Shown here piece by piece: positions 302 through 63,485 of a DNA stretch of 64,000 nt. The position numbers and the translations under genes were made by a program. Numbering within the stretch: position 1 is the first letter of the stretch; the number at the start of each line of letters is the position of its first letter. The DNA is from an uncultured Chlamydiae bacterium (GTDB lineage Bacteria; Chlamydiota; Chlamydiia; Chlamydiales; Parachlamydiaceae). Location: NCBI GenBank assembly GCA_963754655.1, contig CAVWGN010000001.1, positions 2,208,001 to 2,272,000 on the forward strand, given 5' to 3'. The notes below the pieces were generated by a model that was not told where the DNA came from, ran no database searches, and saw only the letters and a program-made list of their open reading frames with translations.

Positions 302-411
302 TCGTACTCCATTACATTAGTTTTTGCCTATCGGGACTGCTTCAAAGTCTTGAATTGGATGAGATGATTCTCTTGTAGTCCTTCAGACTACATGACGAGG
401 GCTAATCTAAC

Positions 412-721
412 CTAGTACTCAACCACATTAGTTTTGTGTATTTAGATTGCTTGAAAGCTCCCGCGGTTGAATTGGCGTAAGTGGGTCAATATTAGCAATA
501 TGGACCCACTTACGCCAATTCAACCCCGGGGCTTTGAAGCAATCTAAATACACAAAACTAATGTGGTTAAGTACTAGTACTCAACCACATTAGTTTTGTG
601 TATTTAGACTGCTTCAAAGCCCCGGGTTGAATTGGTGCTAATATTGACCCATTTACGCCAATTCAACCGCGGGAGCTTTCAAGCAATCTAAATACACAAA
701 ACTAATGTGGTTGAGTACTAG
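412..721. mobile_element. Two adjacent, oppositely oriented type B palindromic MITE-like elements (412-577 and 574-721) sharing a CTAG
   Basis: Each runs CTAGTACTCAACCACATTAGTTTTGTG...CACAAAACTAATGTGGTT(A/G)AGTACTAG around an inner GGTTGAATTGG...CCAATTCAACC hairpin. Confidence 0.9.
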
Positions 722-724
722 GGC

Positions 725-1650
725 TAGGATGTTCATTTTGTGCAAAAAATGAGCTTTATTTTCACAATAATTGGCATAGTTGAATTGAAGGTCGCATGTT
801 TATGTCGTCCTTTCAGGACTCGATGTCTTTTTGATAGAACCCAGGCCTCCGCTTCGCTGCGACCTGGGCTGTAACATGACGGCCCTTCAGGCCTTAACAA
901 AAGATGTTTAAGTCCCTCTTCTATAGTCCCTAAATCATCTTTTTGTTAAAGCCTGAAGGCCCTCATGTTACAGCCCAGGTCGCAGCAAAGCGGAGGCCTG
1001 GGCTATAACATGAGGGCCTTCAGGCCTTAACAAGAGATGTTTAAGTCCCTGTTCTATAGTCCCTAAATCATCTTTTTGTTAAAGCCTGAAGGCCGTCATG
1101 TTATAGCCCAGGTCGCAGCGAAGCGGAGGCCTGGGCTGTAACATGACGGCCTTCAGGCTTTAACAAGAGATGTTTAAGTCCCTGTTCTATAGTCCCTAAA
1201 TCATCTTTTTGTTAAAGCCTGAAGGCCGTCATGTTATAGCCCAGGTCGCAGCGAAGCGGAGGCCTGGGCTGTAACATGACGGCCTTCAGGCTTTAACAAG
1301 AGATGTTTAAGTCCCTGTTCTATAGTCCCTAAATCATCTTTTTGTTAAAGCCTGAAGGCCGTCATGTTATAGCCCAGGTCGCAGCGAAGCGGAGGCCTGG
1401 GCTGTAACATGACGGCTTTCAGGCCTTAACAAGAGATGTTTAAGTCCCTGTTCTATAGTCCCTAAATCATCTTTTTGTTAAAGCCTGAAGGCCGTCATGT
1501 TATAGCCCAAGTCGCAGCGAAGCGGAGGCCTGGGTTCTATCAAAAAGACATCAAGTCCTGAAAGGACGACATAAACATGCGACCTTCAATTCAACTATGC
1601 CACTTATTGTGAAAAATAAAGCTCATTTTTTGCACAAAATTAACACCCTA
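725..1650. mobile_element. Type C palindromic element with five internal ~133-bp tandem units
   Basis: TAGGATGTTCATTTTGTGC...GCACAAAATTAACACCCTA arms. Units start at 864, 998, 1131, 1264 and 1397. Confidence 0.9.
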
Positions 1651-2285
1651 ACCCAGGGCGATGCCCTGGGCTATTTTATTTGAAGCCTTTCATGCTCTGA
1701 ACGTCGGACATTTTGGAAGACCTCCTTCTATAACGATTGTAGGGCTATGCCTATTAAAGGGTAAATACTCCACAATCATTTTAGAGACGGTTAACAAAAA
1801 CCTTTCCAATGTTCAGAGCCTGAAAGGCTCCAAATAAAATAGCCCAGGGCATCGCCCTGGGTAGATTAGCCCTCGTCATGTAGTCTGAAGGACTACAAGA
1901 GAATCATCTCATCCAACCCAAGGCTTTCAAGCACTCCCCATAGGCTAAAATTAATGTAATAGAGTCTAGTACCTACGCGTTAAATGCTCAGCCAGAGATA
2001 AGGTTAGGCGATGTATCGCCTTCAGTCGCCGCCCCCCTTACATGCTAAAAAAATATAACCTGTCTCACAGTAATTGTCTATCCCATTATGATATGAATAG
2101 TTGCCCCTTGAATTAATTAAAAGATGTACCTTTAATTGTTTCTCATATCCTTCCTAATTTAATTTAACCAATCGACAAAGTAATTTATTAATCTAACTGA
2201 TTTTTGCTGATTTGAATACTGATTGCAAAATAAAAAACAAAGACATATCATTTTGTAGATTAAGATTAATTTATGTATTTATGCC

Positions 2286-60672: not shown

Positions 60673-61298
60673 TAAATGCTCCTTTTCAAACTAGAAAACA
60701 GTAATTCTTCATCTAATAATTTTATCATTTTATCATCCATGTGCATAACGCCTCTGATATAATTAAGGATGGATTTAGAAATCGTGGCAGAAGCATCTTC
60801 AATCGCAGAAAGATTCCAGTTATGAATTCCCTCGATTTCATCGACAGGAAATACCCATAATTCTCCGTCTTTAATAATGGCCATCATACGGTTAAGTTGA
60901 TACGGAATGCGATTTAAATCAGAAACACTTAGCGTTTCAATCTGTAATAGTGCATGTAAATGAATATATAACTCCAAATTACCATTTAAATTCACAAGGC
61001 CTTGCAAAATCTTTCCACTGCGATGAGGAATGCGATGCACTGGACGACGTTGTGTCACCTCTTTGAAGCACACTGTGGGCAGAGCTAGCCACTCCTTTCC
61101 TAAGCGAAAAACCAGTACTGAGAGGGTGTTTCTAGCATAGTCAGGCAATGTTGGATCTTTTAAAGATGCAGTCCATTTTTGAATATACGCCTCGTCAGAA
61201 AGGCTATCAAATAAGTGATTGATTCCTTTATGGGGCAATGAACCTAAATGAAATTCTGAAATCTTCTGCTGATGTTTTGGATTTTTTTCTTTCTTCAT
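60672..61298 (-). CDS. CheW-like adaptor (WspD-like)
   Basis: LVFRLGKEWLALP...HRIPHR...GLVNLNG...FPVDE. Confidence 0.85.
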   Translation of the reverse strand: MKKEKNPKHQQKISEFHLGSLPHKGINHLFDSLSDEAYIQKWTASLKDPTLPDYARNTLSVLVFRLGKEWLALPTVCFKEVTQRRPVHRIPHRSGKILQGLVNLNGNLELYIHLHALLQIETLSVSDLNRIPYQLNRMMAIIKDGELWVFPVDEIEGIHNWNLSAIEDASATISKSILNYIRGVMHMDDKMIKLLDEELLFSSLKRSI

Positions 61299-61641
61299 AA
61301 ATTTTTGAAATCAAAGACCTAGAATGAATGTGTTGATAAGAAACGGAAAAGTTGTTCAACATCCTACATATTGAATACAGCGCCTAACTACCGACAGGCT
61401 ATGACTTGATTTAAAATGGAATACTCATTTTTTTTGCTAGGTTTTTTTAATGTCACTTTTGGCACAATGCGTACAAAATCGCGACTGTTAATAGCCTATC
61501 CTTCTTGCCGCCATAAAAAAGCAGCAGGGACATACACACCCCTTATTCCATTATAAAAGATTCTCCTATTCCATCAATCTAATTGCATCTATTATTAAAA
61601 TAATTTTTAATGAATTTATCCAATCAAATGGGGACATTGAT

Positions 61642-62730
61642 ATGCATTCGACTTCTTTTTCCATCAAATGGTTTATCAATTGCCTACTCATCTTTCTCAA
61701 TGCCTGTCTACAGGGAGAAGAACAACTCTTCTGTTTATTTGATGATCGGGCCTGGCAAATTGGATTTGAAGCAGAGATACAAGATGAAAAAATTACAGAG
61801 CTCATCTTACAAAATGAAAATATTATGAATTGGAATGAACTTTTTACTGTTCAGCTTTTCCTAGGATTTCCTCTTTCCGCATCTGATTTTGTCACTGTAT
61901 TGGAAAGATCTTCTAAAGAATCTCTTCCTACTCAAGAAGATCTTGAATTTAAAATCATTGAGAAAGATCCTCTTGATATCTTTGAGAGTTCCTTTATTTT
62001 CAATCAGAATCAGGAAAAAGCCACTATTGCTAACAATGAATATAATGTGGGTCGCGTCATAAAAGGAAAAACGACTCTTTATTATCTGCGTTATTCCACT
62101 AAGGATGTCAACTTATTTAAACAAAATAAAGATGCTTGGATAAAGCGATTGAAATTAGCTTACGTTGCTTCCGCTCCTAAAGAAAACTCCCAAGGAAAAT
62201 GGATGGTATTTAATTCTAATGGGATCTACGAAGAAGAAAAGCAGTTGACCCATCAGAATGAGTATCAATTTATTGATAATCAAAATGCAGGATATAGTCT
62301 TTCCCTACCTAAAAATTGGACGTTTCGCAAAGTTGAGAAATCTAAACACGTTGACGACTCTTTTGCTTGGACAGATTCTTTAGTTTTTTTTAGCTCCGAC
62401 CAATCCATTGAAGGCAAGGTGATGTTTAGGGATTTGCCAGAAGAATCTTCTCTTAAAGCTATCTCACAAAAGTATTATGAAATCTATAAAAAACAACATC
62501 CACAGACTCAAGTGATTGGTGAAGGGAAAATTCAAACGATTGTAGGGCAAAATGCGCATTATCTTATTCTTATCAGTGGAGACAAAAAGGGATGGATCAC
62601 CTTAATGTGTATCAATAAACGCTTCTATTGCTTAGAGTTATGGACAAAGTCTACGCAATTTAATGACTTGAAAACGACATTAAAGAACATCATTATGAAT
62701 TTTCAAACAAGATCTTTCCATAAAGATTAA
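61642..62730 (+). CDS. Hypothetical exported protein
   Basis: 362-aa ORF with an N-terminal hydrophobic signal-like segment. Confidence 0.7.
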   Translation: MHSTSFSIKWFINCLLIFLNACLQGEEQLFCLFDDRAWQIGFEAEIQDEKITELILQNENIMNWNELFTVQLFLGFPLSASDFVTVLERSSKESLPTQEDLEFKIIEKDPLDIFESSFIFNQNQEKATIANNEYNVGRVIKGKTTLYYLRYSTKDVNLFKQNKDAWIKRLKLAYVASAPKENSQGKWMVFNSNGIYEEEKQLTHQNEYQFIDNQNAGYSLSLPKNWTFRKVEKSKHVDDSFAWTDSLVFFSSDQSIEGKVMFRDLPEESSLKAISQKYYEIYKKQHPQTQVIGEGKIQTIVGQNAHYLILISGDKKGWITLMCINKRFYCLELWTKSTQFNDLKTTLKNIIMNFQTRSFHKD

Positions 62731-62740
62731 TCAAAATCAA

Positions 62741-63485
62741 CTAGGGAGCGTACCTAAAAGATGTTAGTGCCTCAGGCTGCATCAAAGCCCGGGGCTAGGG
62801 TGTTCATTTTGTGCAAAAAATGAGCTTTATTTTTCACAATAATTGGCATAGTTAAATTGAAGGTCGCATGTTTATGCCGTCCTTTCAGGACTCGATGTCT
62901 TTTTGATAGAACCCAGGCCTCCGCTTCGCTGCGACCTGGGCTGTAACATGCCGGCCCTTCAGGCCTTAACAAGAGAGATTTAAGTCCCTCTTCTATAGTC
63001 CATAAATAGTCCTTTTGTTAAGGTTTAAAGGGCCGGCCCTTCAGGCCTTAACAAGAGAGATTTAAGTCCCTCTTCTATAGTCCATAAATAGTCCTTTTGT
63101 TAAGGTTTAAAGGGCCGGCCCTTCAGGCCTTAACAAAAAGATGATGGAGGGACTATAGAAGAGGGACTTAAATCTCTTTTGTTAAGGCCTGAAGGGCCGG
63201 CCCTTTAAACCTTAACAAAAGGACTATTTATGGACTATAGAAGAGGGACTTAAATCTCTCTTGTTAAGGCCTGAAGGGCCGGCATGTTACAGCCCAGGTC
63301 GCAGCGAAGCGGAGGCCTGGGTTCTATCAAAAAGACATCGAGTCCTGAAAGAACGGCATAAACATGCGACCTTCAATTTAACTATGCCAATTATTGTGAA
63401 AAATAAAGCTCATTTTTTGCACAAAATGAACACCCTAACCCGGGATTGAATTGGCATAATTGGGTCTATATTGGCTTAATATTGA
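62741..63485. mobile_element. Partial shell with type C element (62796-63437) holding four 82-bp core units
   Basis: Starts CTAGGGAGCGTACCTAAAA. Units at 62953, 63035, 63117 and 63199. A B-hairpin remnant follows 63440. Confidence 0.88.

Follow-up and report, generated by a model that had tools for sequence, protein, structure and literature searches.

Bacterial MITEs derived from IS630/Tc1-mariner elements include Correia, RUP and Nezha, and IS630 prefers CTAG. REPtrons and REPINs with their RAYT (TnpA-REP) genes and TIRtrons with their TIRYT genes have been described (Di Nocera 2013, PMC3733652; Quentin 2018, PMC6006769; Bertels 2017, PMC5581495), with further accounts of REPtrons and RAYT genes by Nunvar 2010 (PMC2817692) and Ton-Hoang 2012 (PMC3333891). 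That a genome can hold multiple Y1 paralogues with a separate repeat family for each is a known pattern (PMC6006769). Insertion sequences (ISs) that target REPs are also on record (Tobes and Pareja 2006, PMC1525189), among them ISPpu9 (PMC8450116, PMC12288879). The family RF01687, "Acido-Lenti-1 RNA" (Weinberg 2010, PMC2864571), is filed by Rfam as an sRNA of Acidobacteria and Lentisphaerae and is presented in a 2026 preprint (10.64898/2026.10.21.760802) as a family without known function.

We analysed a stretch of 64,000 nucleotides of a chlamydial genome, referred to here as the window, together with the rest of that genome. As in REPtrons, stand-alone Y1/HUH genes lie between inverted hairpin repeats that are present at high copy number in intergenic DNA, and each of several Y1 paralogues has a repeat family of its own. 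As in REPINs, the repeats occur in inverted doublets that form hairpins (Rc-El-Rc, 247 bp). REPtrons have a single REP of 20-40 nt as their repeat, whereas the repeat unit here measures ~100 nt and is made up of three hairpins; in this genome, most of these modules lie within MITE layers of DDE type.

Palindromic loci of the window and the genome

The shell-end pattern CTAGTACTCNNNNACA, allowing at most one mismatch, occurred 16 times in the window against 0.07 expected (100 shuffles of the window; largest shuffled count, 1), and the matches fell at the loci named in the initial annotation. That annotation had listed eight loci, and a module census of the window returned exactly these and no others. 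It had also described shell ends common to most loci; in some details the loci differ from that description, in that the left end at 53441 is degenerate, a canonical shell is absent at 62741-63485, and the right end of 9884-10379 reads ...TACTAA rather than CTAG. The whole genome contains 212 shell ends, and the census gave 310 repeat loci amounting to 119,678 bp (~3.8%). Genome-wide, the repeat loci are almost all intergenic, and ORFs of at least 200 amino acids hold 0.23% of repeat bases versus 74.6% of the genome. The window loci and their parts are as follows (window positions; a strand is given for the profile matches).

301..1969 (census row C1 2208352-2209946): composite locus with an outer shell (CCATT-type left end CTCGTACTCCATTACA, degenerate right end), containing a D element, a tandem pair of shell+B elements and an Rb-bounded element
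355..1916 (contig coordinates C1 2208355-2209916): Rb-bounded element, ends TTGGATGAGA...TCTCATCCAA
412..577: shell+B element, first of the tandem pair, 166 bp
574..721: shell+B element, second of the pair; the CTAG at 574-577 is common to both copies
725..1650 (C1 2208725-2209650): D element, TIR TAGGATGT../..ACACCCTA, REP-c in the arms, (El Rc<) array of five units
9884..10379: shell+C element; insertion site, the TA in the stop codon of the gene upstream
18474..18643: 170-bp shell+B element, shell of the CCATT type
21864..22430: shell+B+D element, D part 21982-22377; a CCSGGG unit bounds each cargo
22427..23366: shell whose arms differ (left arm Si2, right arm Si1-like), enclosing the Rb-bounded element 22482-23311
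22482-23311, contents: M at 22557-22699, REP-d module at ~22760-23010, and N
34039..34540: shell+C element, 502 bp, reference copy of the C family alignment
48344..49009: shell+D element, three El units, inner REP-c arms at ~48470-48570 and 48785-48885
53441..53896: shell+C element, degenerate left end and shortened loop
62741..63485: D element (62796-63437) in a degenerate shell, then a B remnant; four El units; 328-nt zero-spacer palindrome
62912..62966, + strand: REP-c hairpins 2 and 1, match to Rfam RF01687 at 37.6 bits (gathering score 37)
63267..63321, - strand: mirror copy of the RF01687 profile match, REP-c hairpins

The arms of the Rb-bounded element at 355..1916 carry the REP-b triple hairpin (GTAGTC..GACTAC, CCCAGGG..CCCTGGG and GAGCCTGAAAGGCTC), a module also present in the flanks of Y1b, one of the Y1 genes described below. 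Nine 4-nt overlaps like the CTAG at 574-577 occur genome-wide. The unlike left and right shells previously noted for 22427-23366 were confirmed. A search for inverted repeats in the window yielded 52 pairs, of which these are the longest.

62789-63116/63117-63444: arms of 328 nt, 96%, zero spacer (the longest listed)
53442-53647/53688-53893: arms of 206 nt, 95%
21979-22158/22201-22380: arms of 180 nt, 99%
48391-48569/48784-48962: arms of 179 nt, 96%
34121-34251/34328-34458: arms of 131 nt, 99%
9885-10015/10248-10378: arms of 131 nt, 96%
306-412/1859-1965: arms of 107 nt, 91%

Comparison with related genomes showed that the site orthologous to 9884..10379 is empty in both G002 and the sister species G001, and that G002 reads ATTAAAGGAATAGTCTC at the site orthologous to 18474..18643. 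The block 21864-23366 is missing from the orthologous spacer of G002, which measures 139 bp compared with 1616 bp here.

Shell elements and their cargos

The shell behaves as a MITE that duplicates TA and prefers (C)TA(G). In the flanks of 217 shell ends, TA was present in 197 and 196, and C was found at position -3 in 171 of 217. Empty orthologous sites, the search for which in related genomes had been proposed at the outset, were found for two shell elements (G000 ..GGCCGC-TA-(GTACTC..AAATAC)-TA-AAAGTTGG versus G002 ..GGACGCTAAAGAG; and G000 ..AAAGAAC-TA-(..)-TA-GCGG versus G002 ..AAAGGAATAGTCTC), and a third, paralogous site is provided by a C copy whose CTAG is occupied, in one instance, by a 165-bp shell+B copy. 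Cargo-free shells of 99 and 81 bp are present in the genome. Shell-bounded pairs, excluding those with an inserted IS or intervening genes, span 47-1692 bp with longest ORFs of 15-170 amino acids and have no coding capacity; the elements are all non-autonomous, as had been supposed. Insertion at TA with its duplication, TIRs, small size and non-coding content are the marks of an IS630/Tc1-mariner-type MITE.

The shell thus resembles IS630/Tc1-mariner MITEs in its TA duplication, CTAG preference, short TIRs and non-coding, intergenic nature, and also in the presence of an IS630-family transposase in the genome, in agreement with the IS630 kind of shell originally suggested. This transposase gene is intact (DDE_3, 72.6 bits, plus HTH domains). 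The IS630-like element (C1:954917-956052) has ends C-TA-GTACTTTATT.. and has CTAGTACT (8 nt), and nothing further, in common with the shell ends. A transposase with matching TIRs had been expected; the match found covers CTAGTACT, and the full shell TIR was found on no IS in the genome. The shell differs from such MITEs not only in this short match but also in forming a palindrome that co-varies over its entire length around an asymmetric, conserved core, and in that sister species keep this core but have entirely different outer TIRs. The sister species G001 carries 213 ends of its own shell-like MITE; a PF13358 search of the G001 draft genome and of G002 gave no match.

Both inner-shell arms were called for 43 elements. 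Cargo C went with shell arm Si3 in eight of eight cases, both arms were Si1 in 12 D or B+D elements and Si2 in eight Rb elements, and 12 elements had mixed Si1/Si2 arms. Variants of shell and cargo are thus inherited together for the most part, which indicates that composites spread as units, and shell variants are shuffled among cargos less freely than had been proposed. Of 307 Rc arms, 165 lie outside any shell; with about half of the REP-type arms so placed, the shell is but one of several hosts. Arm pairs of the C family were changed on both sides in 50 of 217 cases, compared with 23.4 ± 3.0 for shuffled nulls (0 of 500 reached 50) and 5-11 for slid nulls.

Inner layers, hairpin modules and Y1 genes

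The D and Rb layers, which lie in the shell centre, resemble the products of a DDE-type IS with ~9-bp duplications rather than those of HUH insertion. A direct repeat of at least 8 nt was seen at 22 of 80 D end-pairs, and in 13 of the 22 the flanks were not mirror images (such as ACCCAGGGC, GCCCTGGGT and GCTCTGGG). The D target approximates GCCCWGGGC or GCCCCGGGGC, with a direct duplication of ~9 bp, and this type of target is present at the shell centre and in the stems of REP hairpins. A 1846-bp IS is represented by 10 full copies (97.9-100% identity), nine of which have 9-bp duplications (for example, GCCCTGGGC, GCTCTGGGC and ACCCAGGCC); its ORF gave no Pfam match and no PDB sequence match. 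The D TIR has only T[AG]GG[AG]TG in common with this IS, and the target and ~9-bp duplication are the same. The first 10 nt of the IS, TGGGATGAGA, start 20 of 30 Rb-bounded elements, and this shared end is the only tie between Rb and the IS, duplication and target having been seen for D. Rb flanks were copy-specific mirror images in 12 of 30 cases (8/9 or better) and direct repeats in none of 30, so that Rb duplications are unreadable. Insertions of the IS and of D and M elements fall in the GCCCWGGGC stems of REP hairpins, and copies of IS4-like and IS5-like elements are located in REP-c hairpins, as with REP-targeting ISs. Unlike those ISs, the elements here target one another over many layers, giving rise to composites as large as 1.6 kb.

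PF01797 gave nine profile matches in the genome, seven of them full length. Five divergent stand-alone IS200-like Y1 genes (Y1a to Y1e) each adjoin their own module, in line with the REP/REPIN-like character attributed to the cargo hairpins in the initial annotation. The five proteins show 36-49% pairwise identity, retain the HUH motif and Tyr, and have a C-terminal extension in common; each gene is single except for one 98% duplicate of Y1b. No TnpB adjoins Y1a to Y1e, the 16 TnpB-domain matches of the genome being located elsewhere, and the genes thus depart from the IS200/IS605 IS pattern in having no adjacent tnpB as well as in not being multi-copy and near-identical. In contrast to REPtron proteins, they score as IS200-like (63-73 bits, passing NF033573) and not as NCBI RAYT (NF047646, cut-off of 80 bits), for which four scored 22-25 bits and Y1e gave no hit at all. 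In a test for a GT[AG]G foot, REP-b hairpin 3 begins with GTAG (GTAGTC..GACTAC) and REP-c hairpin 3 is GTCC..GGAC.

The Y1 flanks are the cargo modules themselves, with a different module for each of the five paralogues. BLAST hits numbered ~264-327 for both flanks of Y1c, 44-89 for Y1b, whose repeat is on both sides, and 87-102 and 31-37 for the single repeat-bearing flanks of Y1e and Y1d, respectively; Y1a has its own low-copy inverted repeats, with just five copies. The gene-plus-repeat layout recurs in a relative in another genome for three of the five genes. Y1c- and Y1b-like genes of other genera have the same three-hairpin layout in their flanks, with stems changed but paired, and the Y1d orthologue of G002 (74%) has a REP-d module 46 nt 3' of the gene. 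The hairpins flanking a Y1e-like gene in G020 differ from those of Y1e. As for a match to an already described family, one module corresponds to RF01687, an orphan in Rfam: hairpins 2 and 1 of REP-c in the window match at or near the gathering score, and RF01687 lies beside Y1c-like genes at 11 of 20 loci in six phylum-level groups, with scores of up to 48 bits in other genomes. Contrary to its filing in Rfam, RF01687 here behaves as the DNA repeat of a Y1 gene.

Nested mobile elements and alternative explanations

We consider it probable that the eight loci are part of a larger set of palindromic, non-autonomous elements, spread throughout the genome and of three classes, that insert into one another. 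The first would be the shell MITE of ~100 bp (166 bp with a conserved B core), which inserts at and duplicates TA, preferably within CTAG, in an IS630/Tc1-mariner-like manner; shell+C (~500 bp) and shell+D (505-666 bp) composites would spread whole by this route. D and Rb-bounded elements would be MITE-like units of the second class, for which the 1846-bp IS is the likely driver, given the same target and 9-bp duplication for D and, for Rb, only the end TGGGATGAGA. The third class would consist of GC-rich modules of three hairpins and of REP/REPIN type that lie within these units: D holds REP-c and Rb holds REP-b, and the C core and REP-d also belong here. Each goes with a divergent, stand-alone Y1 (HUH) gene of its own, whose protein would act on the hairpins; the modules would presumably spread as single-stranded hairpins, as in REPtrons. 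The analysis directly shows the structures and their copy numbers, the target duplications and empty sites, the adjacency of genes and repeats with its conservation, and the co-variation of the arms; from these we infer which enzyme moves each layer and that the Y1 proteins act on the hairpins. The two-tier system first envisaged, of REPIN-like cargos in a MITE shell, was largely right but too simple: there are at least three layers, with transposition signatures of at least three kinds, and D and Rb are DDE-like. Every layer is also found outside the composites that contain it, and the layers nest in many combinations. Nesting arises because every element contains the short palindrome that another one targets. 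The preferred targets lie at the centres of other palindromic elements, which accounts for the Russian-doll shape, and insertion at the centre of a palindrome leaves the composite symmetric.

Diversification of a single old composite palindrome family mainly by homologous recombination, gene conversion and slippage, with the modules as recombination blocks, might explain the mixed shell arms, the internal arrays (one to seven El units, (El Rc<)n, and M-Rd-M of up to 3.2 kb), which look like slippage or unequal exchange, and the short D forms of 36 bp, which are readable as deletions between internal repeats. This is unlikely, however, given the target duplications of two layers (TA and ~9 bp), the empty orthologous and paralogous sites, the occurrence of each layer in many contexts, and the presence of the inner REP-c module in multiple copies in other genera without the shell or outer D part. 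We also give little credence to movement of all layers by DDE transposases, with the Y1 genes as bystanders among repeats attracted to their surroundings. Although traceable copies in the genome have spread as shell- or D-bounded units, the Y1c-bearing unit has its own outer TIR and seven gene-less derivatives (one with a 7-nt duplication), and repeats are one-sided at Y1e and Y1d, this reading has against it the intact HUH motif and Tyr, the separate module in five of five cases, the Y1d layout retained in G002, and the inverted hairpins, changed in their stems yet paired, at Y1c/Y1b-like genes across several genera and phyla.

The strictly intergenic location, the strong co-variation of the arms and the RF01687 match of an inner module could instead mean that the elements serve as structured RNAs with a function or as sites of regulation, for example as terminators, sRNA genes or binding sites for proteins, rather than being selfish mobile DNA. 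We regard this as quite improbable as the primary role, since the elements occur in both orientations, show target duplications, empty sites and mutual insertion, and are associated with transposase genes, and since a strand-specific RNA gene has no need of perfect 300-nt palindromes, whose two strands read alike; the elements may nevertheless act secondarily as terminators. The perfect zero-spacer palindrome at 62789-63444 is what a fold-back artefact of assembly or amplification might look like, but such an origin is scarcely credible for divergent copies (79-98% identity) in which the left/right differences are nonetheless preserved. Identity of one C copy to the reference is 98% in one orientation and 90% in the other. 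The arms are moreover 91-99% complementary rather than 100%, the elements carry target duplications, and independent assemblies from other genera contain related modules.

In short, the long palindromes are genuine mobile DNA without coding function, formed as several kinds of small element land repeatedly in the centres of one another, and the most likely enzymes for their movement are encoded in the same genome. The kinds of element are already known; what is new is their dense mutual nesting in a chlamydia.

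Extent of the repeat family and insertion of the shell

All eight intergenic palindromic loci proposed in the initial annotation were read directly, and both their presence and their positions were borne out. The ends of the shell, the CTAG-bounded palindromic MITE that encloses the cargos B, C, D, and Rb-bounded elements, matched their pattern 16 times in the window against an expectation of 0.07, and we detected 52 inverted-repeat pairs there, with arms of up to 328 nt that were 91–99% complementary at the eight loci. The window corresponds to C1:2208001-2272000, and the whole genome (G000; 3.12 Mb plus a 35-kb contig, 38.8% G+C) contains 212 shell ends at no more than one mismatch, including 109 of the exact type CAACC and 15 of the exact type CCATT. 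A BLAST census with a library of 16 modules taken from window and genome coordinates, whose boundaries we defined ourselves and for which assignment to the inner-shell arm variants Si1 and Si2 is possibly noisy, yielded 310 repeat loci amounting to 119,678 bp, or about 3.8% of the genome. The census loci within the window were exactly the eight reported. ORFs of at least 200 amino acids contain 0.23% of the repeat bases versus 74.6% of the genome. The longest repeat block is a 3.2-kb array of module M alternating with REP-d (main contig C1:413150-416387), and a small separate hairpin, GGGAGCGTACCTAAAAGA..TTAGGTACGCTCCC, adjoins the left end of two loci (window 268-301 and 62742-62770). A sequencing-run search with sampled words matched only three soil-metagenome runs, with 5–6% of words, and no RNA run.

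The shell is a TA-duplicating MITE; TA-specific MITEs are a described class. The same-genus genomes G001 to G003 are only about 70–75% identical to G000 in coding DNA, yet they are syntenic at the window. The element at 9884-10379 is absent from G002 and G001, leaving an empty orthologous site: the junctions read ..TTGGCCGC-TA-(GTACTC...AAATAC)-TA-AAAGTTGG in G000 and ..TTGGACGCTAAAGAGATC in G002. Comparison of the filled and empty junctions indicates that insertion took place at, and duplicated, the TA in the stop codon of the neighboring gene. The stop codon of this upstream gene (window 9875-9890) is TAA in G001 and G002 and TAG in G000, where it consists of the duplicated TA and the first G of the element. 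The element proper begins with GTAC, and the outer C/G of "CTAG" belongs to the flank. An empty orthologous position was also found for 18474-18643, where G002 has ATTAAAGGAATAGTCTC, and the 1503-bp block at 21864-23366 is absent from G002, which has a 139-bp spacer there with unalignable flanks. One C copy is interrupted exactly at its CTAG by a 165-bp shell+B (C1:606526-606690). For 217 ends, TA was present in 197 and 196 cases, and the base outside TA was C in 171, T in 21, G in 14, and A in 11, with no conservation further out. Nine pairs of elements have an end-to-end CTAG in common, and empty shells of 99 bp (C1:792006-792104) and 81 bp (163155-163235) are present. CTAG occurs 5428 times on C1 (base composition predicts about 11,000) and is the preferred shell target despite this under-representation.

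The only intact IS630-family element in G000 is as follows.

C1:954917-956052, IS630-family element with a 353-aa ORF

The ORF matches DDE_3 (72.6 bits) and HTH domains, and the element ends read C-TA-GTACTTTATT..., with a second left end at 1630365. This element and the shell have TA duplication, CTAG context, and the initial GTACT in common, with no match beyond, and no IS carrying the complete shell TIR turned up. A preference for CTAG, duplication of TA, and eight end bases in common suggest that an IS630-type transposase may move the shell. An autonomous shell copy was sought by end pairing and ORF listing, and the long ORFs were all unrelated ISs or ordinary genes; the ISs inserted between shell ends were IS4-like, IS256-like, IS481-like, IS5-like, and IS110-like. 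Exact scanning of species-representative genomes, a collection that possibly excludes G000, with a 25-mer and a 21-mer (one degenerate base) of the shell TIR gave nothing.

G001 has a shell-like family of its own, with 213 ends of TATACTGCTTCCAGCTGAAT versus 0 for a control pattern. In ten G001 copies, the inner approximately 100 bp are common to G001 and G000, GCTTCAAAGCCCCGGGG-TTGA(stem)..(stem)TCAA-CCGCGGGAGCTTTCAAGC, and the left/right difference CCCCGGGG versus CCGCGGGAG is retained; the stem is altered on both sides, and the two genomes have unrelated outer TIRs. As judged from these copies, the shell core appears to be old and the shell ends not. A PF13358 search gave no match in G002 or in G001 (a 140-contig draft) and 19 matches in G003. 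The IS630 link is therefore not confirmed for the sister species without a match, and the G003 copies checked for a shell-matching TIR were truncated loci with no inverted pair. Given that MITE ends lie close to many G001 contig ends (contig starts, positions of about 80–130), the repeats probably break the short-read assembly of this genome.

Y1 genes and the hairpin modules

The GC-rich hairpin modules are REP-like, and the repeats flanking five divergent stand-alone IS200-like Y1 (HUH) genes, Y1a to Y1e, suggest that each module has a Y1 gene of its own. PF01797 gave nine matches in G000, seven of them full length. The products of Y1a to Y1e are about 150 amino acids long, are 36–49% identical to one another and 24–28% identical to the IS200 copy, retain the HUH motif and the YI..Q tyrosine, and have in common a COOH-terminal extension of about 28 residues. 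Y1b has one 98% duplicate and one fragment, and Y1a is located between rpsD and a glycosyltransferase gene. The only canonical IS200 tnpA (C1:1646425-1646889; 148 bits on NF033573) has HVN at the HUH position; a serine-recombinase ORF and a copy of TnpB are nearby. All five Y1 genes pass the NCBI IS200 model with 63–73 bits; with the NCBI RAYT model, four score 22–25 bits, far under the cut-off of 80, and Y1e gives no match. No TnpB gene lies beside Y1a to Y1e, with the 16 PF07282 matches in G000 all being elsewhere. These matches (such as those at 944524, 1345910, and 1603305) comprise about a dozen near-identical 427-aa TnpB-like genes and three of 519 aa; at least the gene at 1345910 adjoins a truncated D element.

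Repeats flanking the Y1 genes of G000 (gene and side; BLAST matches; module)
Y1a, flanks; about 30; own inverted repeats, 5 census copies
Y1b, flanks; 44-89; Rb module
Y1c, both sides; about 264-327; D inner module (GGCCTGAAGGGCC / CCCAGG..CCTGGG / GTCCTGAAAGGAC)
Y1d, 3' side only; 31-37; CCGTGGG..CCCACGG module of 22760-23010
Y1e, 3' side only; 87-102; C palindrome and C hairpin GTCCTACGGAC

The three-hairpin layout seen in G000 was also observed on both sides of Y1c/Y1b-like genes in comparison genomes (G015, G010, G016, G005, G030, and others), with stems that differ and are still paired. In G002, the REP-d module lies 46 nt to the 3' side of the Y1d orthologue (74%); in G020, inverted hairpins dissimilar to C flank the Y1e-like gene (58%). 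Searching 41 genomes with the inner approximately 100 nt of D gave matches in 12, with multiple copies in four other genera; matches to the shell and to outer D were confined to G000. The Y1c unit has an outer TIR of its own and is accompanied by seven derivatives (256–311 bp) that lack the gene; one of them is inserted in the loop of a C element, where ATTGAAT is duplicated. Systems with several Y1 genes, each with its own repeat family, are described as REPtrons and TIRtrons in two papers (PMC6006769, PMC3733652).

The REP-c hairpins of D match the Rfam family RF01687, "Acido-Lenti-1," in the window (62912-62966 and 63267-63321) with 37.6 bits against a gathering score of 37, and the G010 Y1c orthologue has RF01687 at 45 bits on both sides. 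At 20 Y1c-like loci of named public genomes (Chlamydiota, Verrucomicrobia, Acidobacteriota, Paludibacter, Planctomycetota, and a deltaproteobacterium), RF01687 was present beside the gene at 11 with E ≤0.01 and at seven with at least 37 bits, about 55–105 nt from each gene end and in mirrored orientation. Coincidence of RF01687 with Y1-flanking hairpins was seen for the window copies and at loci L036, L102, L113, and L094. A 2026 preprint (10.64898/2026.10.21.760802) still lists the family as "of unknown function," and our literature searches found no paper equating it with a Y1 transposase repeat. These results support reading Acido-Lenti-1 not as an sRNA but as the DNA repeat belonging to a Y1 transposase clade of wide distribution.

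Insertion of the D and Rb layers and nesting

The TIR of D is TAGGGTGTTCATTTTGTGCA, and 80 left and right ends could be paired. Direct repeats of at least 8 nt (ACCCAGGGC, GCCCTGGGT, GCTCTGGG, and TAACCCATGGC, for example) were found at 22 of these 80 junctions, with flanks that were not mirror images in 13 of the 22; slight offsets were tolerated by the script, and the pairs include some with an IS inserted between the ends and some with a common end. The D target resembles RCCCWGGGY or GCCCCGGGGC, the latter being the shell center. Targeting of this center by D accounts for the n+1 CCSGGG units that separate n cargos within one shell, the locus at 21864 being an example. The candidate driver of the D and Rb layers is the following element.

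C1:1781574-1783419, 1846-bp IS (BLAST query locus)

Ten full copies of this IS are present in G000 (97.9–100% identity by BLAST), with ends TGGGATGAGAAAAC...GTTTTCTCATCCCA and 9-bp direct duplications at nine of the ten (GCCCTGGGC, GCTCTGGGC, GCCCCAGGA, GCCCGGGGT, ACCCAGGCC, and others). A Pfam search of its 470-aa ORF returned nothing above noise, and no PDB sequence matched. The first 10 nt of the IS, TGGGATGAGA, also start 20 of 30 Rb-bounded elements; D and the IS have only T[AG]GG[AG]TG in common. The 9-nt flanks of Rb are copy-specific mirror images at 8/9 or better in 12 of 30 elements (such as C1:1598111-1598874 and 2679603-2681428) and direct repeats in none of the 30. Simple insertion does not account for these mirror-image flanks. 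For M, flanks at 8/9 or better were direct in 11 of 71 units and mirrored in 11 of 71, so that a reading as duplications is ambiguous.

Every layer was also found outside its composites, and the two-tier model of shell and cargo, although largely upheld, is too simple. The minimal units nonetheless tend to lie within further palindromic flanks.

Minimal units (El, Do, Cc, Cl, M, and N being further census modules)
Rc-El-Rc, 247 bp
Do-Rc-El-Rc-Do, about 397 bp
Cc-Cl-Cc, about 300 bp
M, 144 bp
M-Rd-M, 676 bp
Rb-N-Rb, 324 bp
shell+B, 166 bp

The shell encloses D, B+D, Rb, or C; Rb encloses D, N, M-Rd-M, or C; and C encloses M-Rd-M or the REP-c unit, with shell+B being nested in C and in M-Rd arrays. 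REP-c arms lie in loci without any shell piece in 165 of 307 cases, and B lies in a shell in 30 of 32. The targets, (C)TA(G) and GCCCWGGGC, are both short and palindromic and lie at element centers or in hairpin stems; a composite stays symmetric when insertion occurs there. A target preference for short palindromes could by itself generate Russian-doll structures.

Other ISs have hairpin targets in common with these elements, an IS4-like IS in GTCCTTTCAGGAC and an IS5-like IS at CCTGGG.

G000 C1:8077-10129, 553517-555379, 1830123-1831982, 2762201-2764227, 2928532-2930638, IS4-like IS (390-aa ORF) in D, five places
G000 C1:1717882-1719121, 2482069-2483578, IS5-like IS (170-aa ORF, ends GGCGTGTTT..) in two D elements, REP-c hairpin 2, CCTGGG stem

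The copy at C1:8077-10129, the only IS4-like copy read at its junction, lies within the REP-c hairpin with a 9-bp duplication, which suggests that this IS may target REP hairpins. REPs are already reported as IS targets in an earlier paper (PMC1525189).

Arm symmetry and implications

We aligned 14 shell+C copies, leaving out the copy with a 390-bp insertion, that split by shell+B, the doubled-loop copy, and partial copies. Pairing was maintained in 96.9% of arm cells. Both sides had changed at 50 of 217 pairs compared with 23.4 ± 3.0 after shuffling, with none of 500 shuffles reaching 50, although the copies are related and the events are not independent; sliding the partner by 1–3 columns gave 5–11. 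C copies also share left/right differences, one copy having 98% identity with the reference in its better orientation and 90% in the opposite one. Retention of such differences argues both against fold-back artefacts and against complete homogenization of the arms. A further reading, to which we give little credence, is that the hairpin itself is the unit under selection or repair, with composites of up to several hundred base pairs staying arm-complementary through dozens of paired changes, the copy-specific mirror-image flanks of Rb among them. If it were true, either movement of these elements would require extrusion of a single-stranded hairpin or cruciform, in which case whole nested palindromes may be substrates of Y1 enzymes, or the cell would have a process of arm-against-arm correction. 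The genome would then host a self-organizing ecosystem, with three kinds of transposition generating cruciform-prone palindromes of ever greater length and a chlamydia tolerating them.

Literature searches on RAYT/chlamydia, MITE/Parachlamydia, and Parachlamydiaceae palindromic repeats, with subscription journals outside their scope, found no description of these elements. New here are the TA duplication revealed by empty sites, the five Y1 genes with their modules, the census, and the co-variation of the arms, together with a putative link of the D and Rb layers to the 1846-bp IS. The result is a concrete parts list of elements, targets, and candidate enzymes for repeats that make up about 3.8% of the genome of an intracellular bacterium. 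With such a list, puzzling long palindromes become testable enzyme-substrate pairs, and the question is raised of how the bacterium keeps perfect palindromes of 300 nt stable.
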